A DNA stretch of 64,000 bases from a virus: positions 1-64,000 of IMG/VR virus record IMGVR_UViG_3300044729_003129. One strand, given 5' to 3'. The translations under genes were made by a program, and so were the position numbers. Below are positions 17,424 through 26,370 of the stretch, in pieces (position 1 is the first letter of the stretch; each line of letters starts with the position of its first letter). The notes under the pieces are model-generated. The model was given only the letters and a program-made list of their open reading frames with translations, had not been told where the DNA came from and did no database searches.

Positions 17424-17445
17424 TGGTGGGCAAGGAGGGACTCGA
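17424..17445 (-). pseudogene. 3' remnant of disrupted tRNA (Leu-type)
   Basis: TCGAGTCCCTCCTTGCCCACCA; CTTGCCC pairs with GGGCAAG at 18310-18316. Confidence 0.8.
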
Positions 17446-17447
17446 CG

Positions 17448-17527
17448 TCGGGAGTCTGGGATTCGAACCCAGAAAAACCTACGGTCTAAACGTAGTAGCT
17501 GTACCAATTTGCATTTGTCAACTCCCG
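17448..17527 (-). tRNA. tRNA-Leu(TAG), short variable arm, no encoded CCA
   Basis: CGGGAGT/ACTCCCG acceptor; CTACG-TT-TAG-AC-CGTAG; TTCGAAT T-loop. Confidence 0.8.
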
Positions 17528-18267
17528 ATAGCAATTTTTAGATCTTCACATTCAAACAAAGATATTTCACCTGAAATAAATCGAGTGTAATTATATAATT
17601 GTTTTTCGTTCCTAATCAAATAAATTTTAATGTTAGGATGATCAGCATACACTAATTTATATTTTTTAATATCATTATCTGATAACCATCCTTTTACTTC
17701 AACGAAAACATCTTTTTTAATACAAAAATCAGGAGTGTATCTTCTATGATTATCATATTTTAATTGTATTCTAGTTACACTATATCCCAACTCTAATAAT
17801 TTTTCTCCAACATTATATTCCCATTCTCCTTGAACTTTTATACCATTTGTTATTTTTTTCCATTCTATATGTGGCGAGTTTTCTAAAAATTTAATTCTGG
17901 CTTCTGATAATTTATTTTTTGTTTCTTGAGTATGTCCAGAAAGAGCTGAACCAAATTTTTTACCAATAAATTGCGGTCTAGCAACCCTATTATCAATTTC
18001 TTTAGTCAGTCCTTTACTCCATGCGCATTTATCTTTTGATTCATTAGACATATTTGCCCAAATTTTTTTCGCATTCCTTCCATTTTCATAGCATTTAAAC
18101 AATCCTTTGCTATTTTTTTCTTTTTGTATTGGACATGAATTGACAGATGCACTACATAATAAAACACCACCGGGGCTTTTAAATTTTGCAATATTACCAC
18201 AACCCACAGAACACAAACAATCAGTTTCTATTGGTAATGATTTCCGATATGGTCTTCGTTTTTTCAT
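17518..18267 (-). mobile_element. free-standing PD-(D/E)xK homing endonuclease with Cys-rich and NUMOD3-like segments
   Basis: YTPDF...VEVKGW; HTQETKNKLSEA; TATAAATA at 18273-80; stop lies inside tRNA-Leu. Confidence 0.75.
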
Positions 18268-18282
18268 AATTATATTTATATG

Positions 18283-18316
18283 AAAACCCGCGTGGCTACC
18301 ATTACACCACTTGCCC
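18283..18316 (-). pseudogene. 5' half of disrupted tRNA (Leu-type)
   Basis: GGGCAAGTGGTGTAATGGTAGCCACGCGGGTTTT, broken at the anticodon. Confidence 0.8.
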
Positions 18317-18320
18317 AAAT

Positions 18321-18356
18321 AAAAAACGGAGCCAACATAGAGAAGGCTCCGTTTTT
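18321..18356. terminator. intrinsic terminator
   Basis: AAAAAACGGAGCC...GGCTCCGTTTTT. Confidence 0.7.
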
Positions 18357-18375
18357 GTTTTTATTCTATTATCTA

Positions 18376-19101
18376 TTAGAATGACTTCTTAAACTCAACC
18401 CCACCGAAGAAAAGATTCTTCATGTCTGAATGCACACCAACCGAGTCATCAAGACCAAGTGAGTATGAGACAAACGGAACAGCGGTCACACCTTGCACAA
18501 CTGGAATGTCAGTCGACACAGTGGTCTCAAAGTGAGTGCACTGTCCTTCTTGAGCGAGATAGCCAAGCTCAGCGCGAAAGTCAAGCATCAATGAAGATCC
18601 AAAGTCATCACTGTATGTTGCAGCAAGTTCGCTATAAGCATTGTTATCACCCACAATACTCATATACTGAGTAAGCGAAAGATCGATTGGACCAACTGCA
18701 CGTGATACAGTCAAACCAGCTTCTTGCGCTTGTCCTTCCTGTCCTGCATAGTCTTGCGAATACCAGGTATAGCTCAAAGATACGAGATAGTCAGCAATCT
18801 CTTTCGAGAAGATTGCAGACAGCTCAGTAGCTTCGTCCTTCCCAGTTGTTTCAGCGTTTGCATAGTCAGCGCTCAAAGCCAACGAAACGTCCGCAGGAAG
18901 TTCAGTTGTCGTTTTGACGATTGCATTTGCTTCATTTGCACCTAGATCAGCACCACGCCAGACCTTATCAGAAGAGTAGCCAGTTTCAAGCGTCACCGGC
19001 GTGAATGCTGAAGGAGCGTCTTCGATTGGGCCTGCATAGGCATAGTTAAGAGCAGCAAGTGCTACAATACCAATTTTAACGATTTGTGTTTGTTTTTTCA
19101 T
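18376..19101 (-). CDS. outer-membrane beta-barrel protein (TIGR02001/TorF-like porin)
   Basis: Signal peptide, YSSDKVWRG motif, amphipathic beta strands, C-terminal Phe. Confidence 0.75.
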   Translation of the reverse strand: MKKQTQIVKIGIVALAALNYAYAGPIEDAPSAFTPVTLETGYSSDKVWRGADLGANEANAIVKTTTELPADVSLALSADYANAETTGKDEATELSAIFSKEIADYLVSLSYTWYSQDYAGQEGQAQEAGLTVSRAVGPIDLSLTQYMSIVGDNNAYSELAATYSDDFGSSLMLDFRAELGYLAQEGQCTHFETTVSTDIPVVQGVTAVPFVSYSLGLDDSVGVHSDMKNLFFGGVEFKKSF

Positions 19102-19133
19102 ATTATATTATTTTTGTTTTTCAGGGGGAGAAG

Positions 19134-19214
19134 TGGTACCCGCTGTAGGATTTGAACCTACGATGATATCCTGAATGTAAATCAGGCGCCTTCGACCACT
19201 CGGCTCAAGCGGGC
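19134..19214 (-). tRNA. tRNA-Val(TAC), atypical body
   Basis: CCTGA-TT-TAC-AT-TCAGG; GCCCGCT/AGCGGGT-ACCA. Confidence 0.85.
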
Positions 19215-19888
19215 AATTTTATCCATAACGGAAAATTTTTCGATTTAATTCTGTTTATTACTGCTGGATGTGTTAGATTATATTTTGCACATATATCTTT
19301 TAAACCTATAAAAATTTCGTTATTGATAGAATATCTATATGATACATTTATATAACTTTGCTCTTGTTTTAAAGTTTTACCAGATTTTAATCTTGGTTTT
19401 CTTCTAGAAGGCCTTTGTTTTGGCACCACCCATTTATTTTTTCCGAATATCCATCCTTCAAGAATACAATCATCTTTATTGATTTTTTTATTTTTCTGTA
19501 AAGCAATATTACATATCCAACGGGTTTTGTATTGAGAATTTCCACTGCCAACTTGATGTTTACTACTTATTTTAGAAACAAATTTTGCGCATTTATTACG
19601 AATAGTTTCATACATCCGCGAGTTTTTAATATATGGTATTCCTCGTTCTTCACATCTCATAGCCATCATATGGCATGCAAATGCAGTTTGTTGATTGTTA
19701 TGAATTTTATCTAAAAGCAAATGGGCAACCCAATGTTCTCTTCCAGTTAGAACTACCAAATTTGAAGGATCATTAGACCCTCCCATCGATCGCATAAGAA
19801 TGTGATGCCGCTCAGTATATCCTGGAGCAGGATTATTTTTACGAAAATTGATGAGATTACAATATATTTGTTGATAGTCCACAAACAT
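19205..19888 (-). mobile_element. free-standing HNH homing endonuclease
   Basis: ERHHILMRSMGGSNDPSNLVVLTGREHWVAHLLL; stop lies inside tRNA-Val. Confidence 0.85.
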
Positions 19889-19921
19889 ATTTATAAAATC
19901 TAACTTTTGAACTTATAATGT

Positions 19922-19963
19922 ATACGGTGTAAAAGCACCGCTCTACCACTGAGCTAACTCCCC
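19922..19963 (-). pseudogene. 5' half of disrupted tRNA-Val(TAC)
   Basis: GGGGAGTTAGCTCAGTGGTAGAGCGGTGCT-TT-TAC-AC-CGTAT, no T arm. Confidence 0.85.
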
Positions 19964-19983
19964 ATAAAAGTATCTATATGTGT

Positions 19984-24738: not shown

Positions 24739-24743
24739 AAAGT

Positions 24744-24818
24744 TGGTAGAGGTACAAGGATTCGAACCTCGACAAACAGAATCAAAATCTGTGGTGCTAA
24801 CCGTTACACAATACCTCT
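24744..24818 (-). tRNA. tRNA-Gln(TTG)
   Basis: Cloverleaf with CCA. Confidence 0.9.
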
Positions 24819-24831
24819 ATGGCACGTCACC

Positions 24832-25461
24832 TTAAGATAATTTATATTTTTTACAATTTTCAAAATGCCATCTAAACATAGTGTTTTTTGATCCTACTTT
24901 AGTACAATACGGACATTTTATTGTATCTCTAATTTTTCCGAGATTTTTTTTACCGCTTTGTTTTTCAATAGCACTTTTTCGTAATTTTTCTTTATGCTCG
25001 TCACTTTTAGGAATATTTTTACTTCCAGATTTATTTCCTTTAGAATTTATTTTTTTGGCTTCTTCATAACCATATTTAGAAACCATTCTTTCCCATGGTG
25101 ACGCATTATTTTTTCCACTAATTCGTAATTTTTCTTTTGTTTCGTTGGAATGACATTTCCCAGAAAATGCCCCCATAATTCCAGGATTTCCTCCACTTCC
25201 ACCAATTTTTAAATTGTATGACATAGGATCTTTAACTAAAGATTCATTTACTATGTGTTGTTCCATATTAAACATTTCTTCTTTAGAATTTAAAATATGT
25301 AATATTTCAAATTTAAAATTTTCTTTTCCATATTTTTTAATGGCACGTTTTAAATGTTTTCCAGATCCTAAATAATTATCATTTATATCTAATGTTTGAT
25401 GACACCCGATATAATATTTTTTATTTATTAGATTGATAGTTTTGTATATTATATACAGCAT
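24832..25461 (-). mobile_element. Seg-like GIY-YIG homing endonuclease
   Basis: IIYKTINLINKKYYIG, YLGSG, YNLKIGG, NUMOD3-like repeats; TATAAATA 25467-74. Confidence 0.9.
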
Positions 25462-25502
25462 AAGTTTATTTATACAAAACTAACATGCTACTATTACATA
25501 AT

Positions 25503-25576
25503 TGGCACGTCGTGCAGGAATCGAACCCACGTTAGCAGATTTGGAATCTGCAGTCCTACCATTGAACGAACGACGT
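25503..25576 (-). tRNA. tRNA-Trp(CCA)
   Basis: Cloverleaf with CCA. Confidence 0.9.
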
Positions 25577-25581
25577 AAAAA

Positions 25582-25657
25582 TGGGGTGATCGACGGGACT
25601 CGAACCCGCAACAACCAGAATCACAATCTGGGGCTCTACCATTGAACTACAACCACC
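25582..25657 (-). tRNA. tRNA-His(GTG)
   Basis: Cloverleaf, G-1, CCA. Confidence 0.9.
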
Positions 25658-25665
25658 AATTAAAT

Positions 25666-25743
25666 TGGCGGAGCGGACGGGGCTCGAACCCGCGACCTCC
25701 AACGTGACAGGCTGGCGCTCTAACCAGACTGAGCTACCGCTCC
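25666..25743 (-). tRNA. tRNA-Asp(GTC)
   Basis: Cloverleaf with CCA. Confidence 0.9.
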
Positions 25744-25747
25744 TAAA

Positions 25748-25823
25748 TGGTGGAGGCAATAGGGCTCGAACCTATGACTCATTCCTTAAAAGGGAATTAC
25801 TCTACCGACTGAGTTATGCCTCC
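25748..25823 (-). tRNA. tRNA-Lys(TTT)
   Basis: Cloverleaf with CCA. Confidence 0.9.
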
Positions 25824-25831
25824 AATTAAAA

Positions 25832-25906
25832 TGGTGGAGGTTAACGGATTCGAACCGTTGACATTCTGCTTGCAAAGCAGACGCTCTACCACTGAGCTAA
25901 ACCCCC
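25832..25906 (-). tRNA. tRNA-Ala(TGC)
   Basis: Cloverleaf, G3:U70, CCA. Confidence 0.9.
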
Positions 25907-26334
25907 TTTGTTGATTGTTTTAATTTTCTTCTAGCCCAAGCTTGTTTCATTGCATCGCTTTGTTTTTGTTTATATTCTTCGCTAGAATGATTTTTTGAAT
26001 TTTTATTACCAATGGCAGATTTAGCAATATTATTTTTTCTTTCCTCTGTATGAGTTGTTCCCGTTAATGTTATAGCAATTTTTGCTTTATGATCTTCGCT
26101 TTTTGGCACGTCTTTATTGGCATGACCGCCCATAGAACATTTATAAGCAATAACTTCTTCTCTGTTGATTTGTCCAGATAATCCTTTCCAAGCAACATAA
26201 TCTTCTAGTTTACCATGTTGCTCATATAATTTTTTATGAGCATCTGCGTGCTGCTCAATAGTTAATTCAATTATATTAGAGGGATCGTCTGTACCTCCCA
26301 TATGTCGTGGAATAATATGATGTTTATGAAGCAT
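25897..26334 (-). mobile_element. free-standing HNH homing endonuclease with NUMOD3-like repeats
   Basis: HKHHIIPRHMGGTDDPSNIIELTIEQHADAH; TATAAATA 26340-47; stop lies inside tRNA-Ala. Confidence 0.85.
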
Positions 26335-26370
26335 ATTATTATTTATAAAAATTACCAACTGAGCTATAAA

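Follow-up and report, generated by a model that had tools for sequence, protein, structure and literature searches.

Candidate homing cassettes that break a tRNA gene and carry its replacement in the tRNA array of a T4-like phage

The sole transfer RNA (tRNA) array of the virus in IMG/VR record IMGVR_UViG_3300044729_003129 contains three units, referred to here as the Leu, Val, and Ala cassettes, in which a fragment of a tRNA gene is followed by a homing endonuclease gene and a complete tRNA. With a probability of about 0.8, these units are homing-endonuclease cassettes, each made up of a late promoter, an endonuclease gene, and a complete tRNA fused to it, inserted in a resident tRNA gene with the same anticodon. 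The evidence comes from the anatomy of the units, their presence or absence in close relatives, the replacement of resident tRNAs by others with the same anticodon, the linkage of the endonuclease families to tRNAs, nucleotide covariation in an odd-bodied tRNA, and remnants that carry the polymorphisms of particular alleles. The window analyzed comprises the first 64,000 nucleotides (nt) of this 173.8-kilobase (kb), 97% complete record, which represents a T4-like phage with a virion protein ~57% identical to its counterparts in T4-like cyanophages. The array occupies 17.4 to 27.8 kb, all its genes are on the minus strand, and the genome contains no further gene for Leu(TAG) or for Val(TAC).

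In the direction of transcription, all three cassettes display the same layout: a tRNA fragment, the motif TATAAATA, a gap of 5 nt, a low-GC endonuclease open reading frame (ORF), and a complete tRNA whose nt 8 to 10 are the stop codon of that ORF. This shared architecture, proposed in an earlier note on the same DNA, was confirmed on re-reading the sequence. The TATAAATA motif is the T4 late-promoter consensus; it occurs 24 times, against 5.4 expected, and is strand biased, with nearly every copy on the coding strand. It is separated from the start codon by exactly 5 nt in these cassettes and in a fourth one described below (18273-18267, 19895-19880, 25474-25459, and 26347-26332, minus strand), and a spacing of 4 to 5 nt is seen in most members of the endonuclease families. 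The endonuclease ORFs have a GC content of 0.26 to 0.33, with values of 0.29 to 0.33 in the three cassettes, compared to 0.38 for the whole genome. Thus, a promoter of their own and a foreign base composition, features by which free-standing homing endonucleases are recognized, are both present, and the catalytic motifs of known homing endonuclease families (PD...EVK and HNH) are intact.

Comparison sequences were provided by twelve IMG/VR loci (L002 to L013), retrieved via a conserved neighboring gene, in which the flanking genes are 92 to 99% (L002 to L011) or ~70% (L012 and L013) identical to those of the window. None of the four endonuclease genes of the window was found in L002 to L013 in this locus comparison, so that close relatives show a presence/absence polymorphism at the same locus. 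The Val site is occupied by one intact tRNA-Val(TAC) in all ten of L002 to L011, and the Leu site by one intact 84-nt class II tRNA-Leu(TAG) in L002 and L004 to L011, the exception being L003. The expectation that relatives without the ORF carry a single intact tRNA with the same anticodon, matching the remnants, therefore holds for Leu and Val. The BLAST matches of the remnants have E-values of 5e-13 and 2e-14. The old and new alleles are 57% identical for Leu and 58% for Val, with the anticodon kept in both, and at other sites 61% (Thr), 55% [Ile(TAT)], and 70% (Met).

The Leu cassette retains both ends of the resident gene. As the earlier note had it, a Leu 5′ half and an old 3′ end flank the ORF and its tRNA-Leu(TAG); the 3′ remnant (17445-17424) pairs with the 5′ half, and the latter is identical to the intact gene of the relatives at 34/34 positions. 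Because the window keeps only nt 1 to 34 of the 5′ half, the break lies inside the anticodon, after U34. An assignment of this half to a class I tRNA with a TTC anticodon was rejected, since the intact relatives identify it as class II Leu(TAG) broken in the anticodon. The TGA stop codon of the ORF (17520-17518) forms nt 8 to 10 of the new tRNA, whose anticodon is TAG. The encoded protein belongs to the Pfam family Phage_endo_I (PF05367), with an invariant PD...EVK motif (D180, E190, and K192), and PDB profile searches match it to T7 endonuclease I (E of ~2e-6); a PDB sequence search linked this PD-(D/E)xK enzyme only to T7 endonuclease I and not to I-Ssp6803I. The ORF is absent from L002 to L013.

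The Val cassette contains an HNH endonuclease with a long N-terminal domain. Its remnant matches the tRNA-Val(TAC) of L005 from 19963 to 19926, at 37/37 nt by BLAST and through nt 38 by eye, and is chimeric, as the rest is diverged. It ends in a T-loop junction motif common to HNH-family cassettes; therefore, the apparent break at nt 38 is more plausibly interpreted as the place where a conversion tract ends. The proposal that a 5′ half carrying TAC is followed by a very different tRNA-Val(TAC) agrees with this match and with the low identity of the two alleles. The new tRNA is called by ARAGORN and scores 57 bits in Rfam; an exact-pattern scan found it in no other sequence. There is no 3′ remnant in this cassette: positions 19124 to 19132, previously suggested as a possible old 3′ end, are instead a conserved spacer, present after tRNA-Val in every close relative (L002 to L011). 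The HNH ORF matches phrog_655 at 7e-36, with its start supported by the N termini of homologs; it is absent from L002 to L011, and L013 has only a weak 90-nt match.

Table 1. Features of the cassettes and of other altered tRNA sites in the window
Unit	Feature	Position	Strand	Evidence or remark
Leu	5′ remnant of resident class II tRNA-Leu(TAG), nt 1-34, ending after U34	18283..18316	-	34/34 identity to intact tRNA of L005-L011
Leu	T4-type late promoter box TATAAATA	18273..18280	-	5 nt before start codon
Leu	PD-(D/E)xK (T7 endonuclease I-like) homing endonuclease, 249 residues, GC 0.29	17518..18267	-	Pfam PF05367, PDB profiles
Leu	Replacement tRNA-Leu(UAG), 80 nt, class I-like, aberrant D region, A73, no encoded CCA	17448..17527	-	
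Leu	3′ remnant of resident tRNA-Leu(TAG), T loop to CCA	17424..17445	-	Matches 3′ end of intact tRNA in relatives
Val	Remnant of resident tRNA-Val(TAC); nt 1-38 as in L005 allele, then ~14 diverged nt to T-loop-like junction	19907..19963	-	
Val	Late promoter box TATAAATA	19888..19895	-	
Val	HNH homing endonuclease gene, GC 0.31	19205..19888	-	Likely true start GTG 19882, 5 nt past box
Val	Replacement tRNA-Val(TAC), 81 nt, Ser-like D arm, 8-nt variable region	19134..19214	-	nt 8-10 are TGA of ORF
Ala	D-arm fragment of earlier tRNA, nt 8-21 of L006-type tRNA-Ala, acceptor strand missing	26353..26368	-	
Ala	Late promoter box TATAAATA	26340..26347	-	
Ala	HNH (+NUMOD3-type) homing endonuclease gene, 145 residues	25897..26334	-	Pfam HNH (PF01844)
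Ala	tRNA-Ala(TGC), ordinary allele	25832..25906	-	ARAGORN, Rfam; nt 8-10 are TAG of ORF
Fourth	TATAAATA (25474-25467) and GIY-YIG gene (ORF 24832-25461), between tRNA-Trp and tRNA-Gln	24832..25474	-	
Other	tRNA-Ile(TAT), 96 nt, class II-like, no endonuclease	27689..27784	-	
Other	tRNA(CAT) with ORF-less group I intron at 33/34	21000..21266	-	Rfam 42.3 bits, cut-off 50

Both endonuclease families show the same arrangement at other loci. A scan of viral contigs with the single PD-(D/E)xK protein returned nothing; alignment-based scans recovered homologs, giving a set of 75 distinct ORFs from metagenomes and viral contigs. A same-strand tRNA starts -36 to +11 nt from the stop codon in 42 of these 75, most commonly at offset -9, which places the stop at nt 8 to 10, and four further ORFs carry an odd Leu tRNA missed by ARAGORN. 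Of the 26 distinct homologs with at least 40% identity, 18 have a Leu(TAG) tRNA fused to them; the partners in more distant clades are Leu(TAA), Leu(CAA), Leu(GAG), Phe, or Gln, and no tRNA lies near the matches that are limited to the nuclease core. Reading by eye showed a Leu-type 5′ half ahead of the promoter, stopping after C32-U33-U34, in at least 13 independent loci; this is the classical site of tRNA-Leu group I introns. In L019 and L096, even the broken remnant belongs to the odd type, which suggests successive rounds of tRNA replacement.

Among the HNH homologs with the long N-terminal domain, 14 of 19 abut a tRNA, typically with the stop codon at nt 13 to 15, as opposed to 0 of 24 that share only the HNH core. 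The C-terminal halves of the long-N-domain enzymes vary with the tRNA isotype. In HNH cassettes, the old tRNA upstream breaks off in the T loop, and its anticodon equals that of the new tRNA in 11/11 cassettes that were read. Remnant break points are constant within a family. Linkage of the ORF homologs to tRNAs, which had been put forward as a check, is thus seen in both families, and the recurrence of the layout with two unrelated nuclease folds extends to a third, GIY-YIG, in L006. A separate observation concerns an HNH cassette of this family at L186:744-1534, which swaps a tRNA with the amber-reading CTA anticodon for another CTA tRNA and hints that this phage reads TAG as sense.

These data bear on a simpler explanation, namely, that the ORFs are ordinary intergenic endonucleases in a tRNA array, the downstream tRNA is merely the next gene, the fragments are unrelated, decayed tRNAs, and the overlap is incidental. 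Nucleotides 8 to 10 of tRNAs (U8, a purine at 9, G or A at 10) often read TAG or TGA, SegB-type genes cluster with tRNAs without isotype preference (PMC13096335), and the tRNA-Ala of the window is an ordinary allele, all of which would fit such an arrangement. However, where the window has a remnant, an ORF, and a tRNA, the relatives show a single, intact tRNA gene of the same anticodon; the anticodons agree in every HNH cassette read, the close PD-(D/E)xK homologs are tied to Leu(TAG), and each family breaks its targets at a constant point. Chance adjacency is therefore very improbable, and insertion of cassettes into resident tRNA genes remains the preferred explanation.

For the Ala cassette, which encodes a short HNH enzyme, the earlier suggestion of a remnant of the same isotype stands in part. 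The order of fragment, ORF, and tRNA is as described; the D-arm fragment by itself does not name an isotype, and the empty site is assigned from position only. In L006 and L013, tRNA-Ala directly follows tRNA-Pro. The ORF has no significant match in L002 to L011 and one weak 65-nt match in L013. What separates the L006-type Ala allele from the carried one is a 1-nt indel in the D loop, beside the junction. An 82% identical homolog (L239) is found with the same D-arm fragment and tRNA-Ala, a 60% identical one (L240) with a D-arm fragment and tRNA-Thr, and a 57% identical one (L241) merely lies 3′ of a tRNA.

The replacement tRNA of the Leu cassette is noncanonical and appears to be maintained. 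In Rfam it reaches a local score of 21.8 bits, below the cut-off of 29, and ARAGORN at a relaxed threshold finds the gene boundaries with the anticodon in the wrong register. Detectors miss this tRNA because seven nucleotides, not two, link the acceptor stem to a 3-base-pair D stem. The same odd RNA is found 3′ of endonuclease homologs with 67% (L016) and 59% (L017) identity. All three members have A73 and a conserved D region, anticodon loop, and variable region, with compensatory changes in the acceptor, anticodon, and T stems: across these three sequences, 8 of the 20 pairs are doubly changed and 100% of the cells are paired. The observed covariation is reached in 0 of 500 shuffles, and slid controls give 0 to 2. 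Thus, the gene fails detection at model thresholds and passes as a cloverleaf maintained by compensatory change, a pattern from which we infer that the odd Leu tRNA is a real RNA. An exact-pattern scan found the window version only in the L003 contig.

Several other sites of the array are occupied or altered. The ORF of the fourth cassette matches Pfam GIY-YIG with 22.2 bits, just below the 22.6 cut-off. The tRNA-Trp and tRNA-Gln genes that flank it are adjacent in L002, L005, and L006, where the Trp allele differs from that of the window; in this cassette (region 24744-25576), the altered allele is the upstream tRNA-Trp, and there is a loose resemblance between the upstream spacer and a decayed 5′ part of Gln. 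The 96-nt tRNA-Ile(TAT) is also present in L006, after a 236-residue ORF that is itself preceded by the 5′ half of a canonical 75-nt Ile(TAT) tRNA; in the window it is probably a replacement tRNA that remained after endonuclease loss. Two stretches on the minus strand, 23886-23985 and 23373-23441, have Rfam tRNA matches (43 and 30.9 bits) without an ARAGORN call and may be further noncanonical tRNAs or remnants. A 241-residue signal-peptide protein with no Pfam or PHROG match is encoded between the Val and Leu tRNA genes (18376-19101, minus strand), and its position is conserved in relatives.

Group I introns are found at some of the same sites. The tRNA(CAT) gene, which contains an intron in the window, is broken at the same point in L006 to L011 by a GIY-YIG cassette with a new tRNA-Met(CAT); in L006, its order is old nt 1 to 33, promoter, ORF, new tRNA-Met(CAT), and old 3′ end. 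The tRNA-Asn(GTT) gene (26625-26896, minus strand) contains a group I intron (Rfam, 70.7 bits) and is intronless in L005, L006, and L013. The tRNA-Leu(UAA) gene of L002 (8729-9490) has a classical group I intron at 34/35 (61.3 bits) and is preceded by a 163-residue low-GC ORF whose TGA forms nt 8 to 10 of the tRNA, so that a fused ORF and an intron occur on one gene. Introns and cassettes therefore share anticodon-loop sites as alternative occupants.

The shared sites could also mean that each cassette is a degenerate group I intron or a split tRNA gene, whose 5′ half and 3′ part would be joined in the RNA so that the old tRNA continues to be made; the tRNA genes that carry introns at these anticodon-loop positions, namely, Asn and CAT of the window and Leu(UAA) of L002 (at 34/35), would speak for this. 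However, no Intron_gpI match was found inside the cassettes at E ≤ 1, though the two true tRNA introns nearby were recovered, the Leu 3′ remnant lacks nt 35 to ~54, and the Val cassette has no 3′ remnant to be joined. Continued splicing of the old tRNA is thus extremely improbable. Group I introns with an internal ORF, considered as another description of the cassettes, were likewise rejected, as there is no ribozyme core and the exons are incomplete.

The insertion of cassettes by homing suggests the following cycle. Late in infection, the TATAAATA promoter would drive the endonuclease gene, and since the start codon lies 5 nt past the box, the mRNA is possibly nearly leaderless. As the stop codon lies inside the tRNA, maturation of the latter by ribonuclease P (RNase P) would be expected to cut the mRNA before the stop and so limit endonuclease expression. 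Upon coinfection with a cassette-free relative, the enzyme would cut the resident tRNA gene, presumably near nt 34/35 of the anticodon in the case of the PD-(D/E)xK enzyme and in or upstream of the T loop or D loop in the case of the HNH enzymes. The break would then be repaired from the cassette-bearing genome, with the 5′ remnant as the left homology arm and either the 3′ remnant or the downstream spacer as the right one, and repair would transfer the promoter together with the endonuclease gene and its tRNA. With its unchanged anticodon, the incoming tRNA would preserve decoding; its stems and D region differ, so that it would no longer be a target. Later loss of the endonuclease would leave an odd-bodied tRNA, and a new endonuclease could target that allele in turn. 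Break repair fits the situation in L015, where the endonuclease is 97% identical, the junctions are identical, and both remnants carry the polymorphisms of another resident allele, as predicted if the remnants are homology arms derived from the recipient. These remnants and the chimeric Val remnant would both be compatible with co-conversion of flanking markers.

The expected RNase P cutting would produce nonstop endonuclease mRNAs, for which a transfer-messenger RNA (tmRNA) could matter. Within the window, ARAGORN reports a tmRNA-like gene (9001-9327, minus strand) whose tag is odd. In the ~70% identical relatives, ARAGORN tmRNAs with a normal tag ending in ALAA are located inside the tRNA array (L012:13422-13726 and L013:11113-11421).

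Endonuclease loss can be examined in L003, which carries the new Leu tRNA from nt 1 together with the old 3′ remnant. A relative with the new tRNA and remnants but no ORF had been listed as a refutation of the homing proposal. Since everything from the 5′ half through the promoter to the ORF is missing as one block and the tRNA is kept from nt 1, L003 is read here as a product of endonuclease loss. Similarly, the 96-nt tRNA-Ile(TAT) of the window and an 87-nt tRNA-Thr of L005 are alleles that are endonuclease-linked in L006 and found here without an endonuclease. Across near-identical genomes, two to four very different bodies per anticodon are found for Thr, Val, Ile, Ala, Pro, Arg, Trp, Tyr, and fMet.

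A number of points weigh against the proposed homing cycle. L003 and the Ile(TAT) gene of the window could be ancestral states and not products of loss. The cleavage sites and the immunity of the new alleles are presumed from sequence. The tRNA-Ala of the window is not divergent: it is 100% identical to the allele of L013, which has no ORF at its Ala site, and is for this reason considered ordinary. Accordingly, either immunity of the Ala allele would depend on as little as the 1-nt D-loop difference or the model fits this cassette poorly. At default settings, neither ARAGORN nor Rfam calls the new Leu tRNA. Several PD-(D/E)xK family members, such as L016 and L017, have no recognizable upstream remnant, and the automated BLAST search for remnants is too insensitive for short diverged halves, so that remnant counts were made by eye. 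In the cultured Aeromonas phage avDM12-TAAL (OP380604, 171779-172631; L242), the order is reversed, with a full tRNA-Leu(TAG), then a partial Leu fragment, and then the ORF. This ORF, annotated as hypothetical, is the nearest homolog of the PD-(D/E)xK enzyme in GenBank phages, and its tRNA-Leu(TAG) is class I-like. A megablast search of the 11-kb region against GenBank phages gave single tRNA matches only.

The variety of tRNA bodies could have another origin if the selected payload were a variant tRNA that escapes host tRNA-cleaving defenses, with the endonucleases serving only as vehicles and host nucleases, not escape from the endonuclease, driving the divergence of the new tRNA. Resistance of phage tRNAs to nucleases that attack the anticodon loop or the variable loop has been documented (PMC10264068 and PMC11555353), SegB helps to spread or amplify such tRNAs (PMC13096335), and many isotypes have radically different bodies, including those at endonuclease-free sites. 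However, the old and new anticodon loops are nearly the same, and the differences lie mainly in the stems and the D region, which fits recognition at the DNA level better than escape of the loop at the RNA level. Cleavage at the gene level accounts for the fixed junctions and the remnants, and cleavage of the RNA does not. As the primary account, defense escape is unlikely; it is compatible with homing and may add a benefit.

Beyond the individual units, the balance tips slightly toward the view that tRNA-replacement homing cassettes form a distinct class of mobile elements that uses at least three nuclease folds, competes with introns, is a main source of odd phage tRNA bodies (such as the class I-like tRNA-Leu and the Ser-like-bodied Thr, Val, and Ile tRNAs) by way of serial replacement and subsequent endonuclease loss, and is throttled by RNase P. 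The earlier note saw in them the invasion of an essential RNA gene; the invasion of an RNA gene is supported, and "essential" is too strong, as T4 tRNA deletions are viable. Phage tRNAs are accessory and probably useful rather than essential. In the accepted view, homing endonucleases enter conserved protein or RNA genes only together with a self-splicing intron or intein (PMC3943268) and are otherwise confined to intergenic positions. If the interpretation given here is true, there is a third, splice-free route, in which the element disrupts the gene and supplies a functional, presumably immune copy of it. Such a route would explain why near-identical phages have very different tRNAs for the same codon, as well as the origin of fragments and odd tRNAs in phage arrays, and would link the evolution of these arrays to competition among phages as well as to host tRNA-targeting defenses. 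It would also supply natural pairs of sensitive and resistant targets for several compact nucleases, and it raises the question of how far a tRNA body can be rebuilt, or even switched in class, and still be charged correctly.

The architecture appears to be undescribed, as previously supposed. The literature search, which was incomplete, so that absence is not proof, retrieved SegB and work on tRNA-based defense and no description of a cassette in a tRNA gene with both dead halves around it, a complete and strongly diverged isoacceptor joined to the ORF, and recurrence in three nuclease folds. T4 SegB, a free-standing GIY-YIG endonuclease in a tRNA cluster, cuts the tRNA-Asn gene of T2L and drags neighboring tRNA genes along (PMC2330249), which bears out the parallel drawn in the earlier note. 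It also shows an ORF/tRNA overlap: when the downstream tRNA-Arg is matured, the segB stop codon is split off from the last sense codon (PMC2330249). SegB thus resembles the cassettes in being free-standing, in its location in a phage tRNA array, in homing into a tRNA gene, and as a precedent for RNase P cutting. However, it recognizes a generic T-loop motif, its homologs are enriched near tRNAs without isotype preference (PMC13096335), and it is not described in a truncated tRNA or with a same-anticodon substitute. Furthermore, the focal enzymes are of the PD-(D/E)xK and HNH types, and only the fourth ORF of the window has a borderline match to the GIY-YIG family of SegB.

T4 SegF and SegG reportedly carry out intronless homing, in which a sensitive allele is broken and the endonuclease gene is co-converted with a resistant allele. 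The cassettes share with them an endonuclease gene beside a local allele of the target that, in the cassettes, is presumably resistant. However, the SegF and SegG genes are intergenic and their target is one intact gene, whereas the cassettes interrupt the target, leave its halves, and add a 55 to 70% identical copy. Endonucleases are also encoded in tRNA introns: I-Ssp6803I, a PD-(D/E)xK enzyme, resides in a group I intron of tRNA-fMet, and tRNA-Leu(UAA) has its classical intron at 34/35. The anticodon-loop target, the PD-(D/E)xK superfamily, and the 34/35 site for Leu are common to both; unlike these introns, the cassettes have no ribozyme or splicing, and function would be restored by a spare gene instead of RNA repair. 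Integrative elements in tRNA genes carry an identical 3′ part of the tRNA, inserted through integrase/att recombination, and leave the displaced fragment in place. There, too, the disrupted tRNA is restored by carried tRNA sequence, whereas the cassettes would spread by nuclease-driven gene conversion and contain a full, divergent tRNA. Finally, fractured genes with split inteins have an endonuclease gene inside a conserved gene that is thereby divided in two halves (PMC2677866), as in the cassettes. In that system, the halves are rejoined as protein, whereas the halves around a cassette are dead and the replacement gene is carried by the cassette itself.

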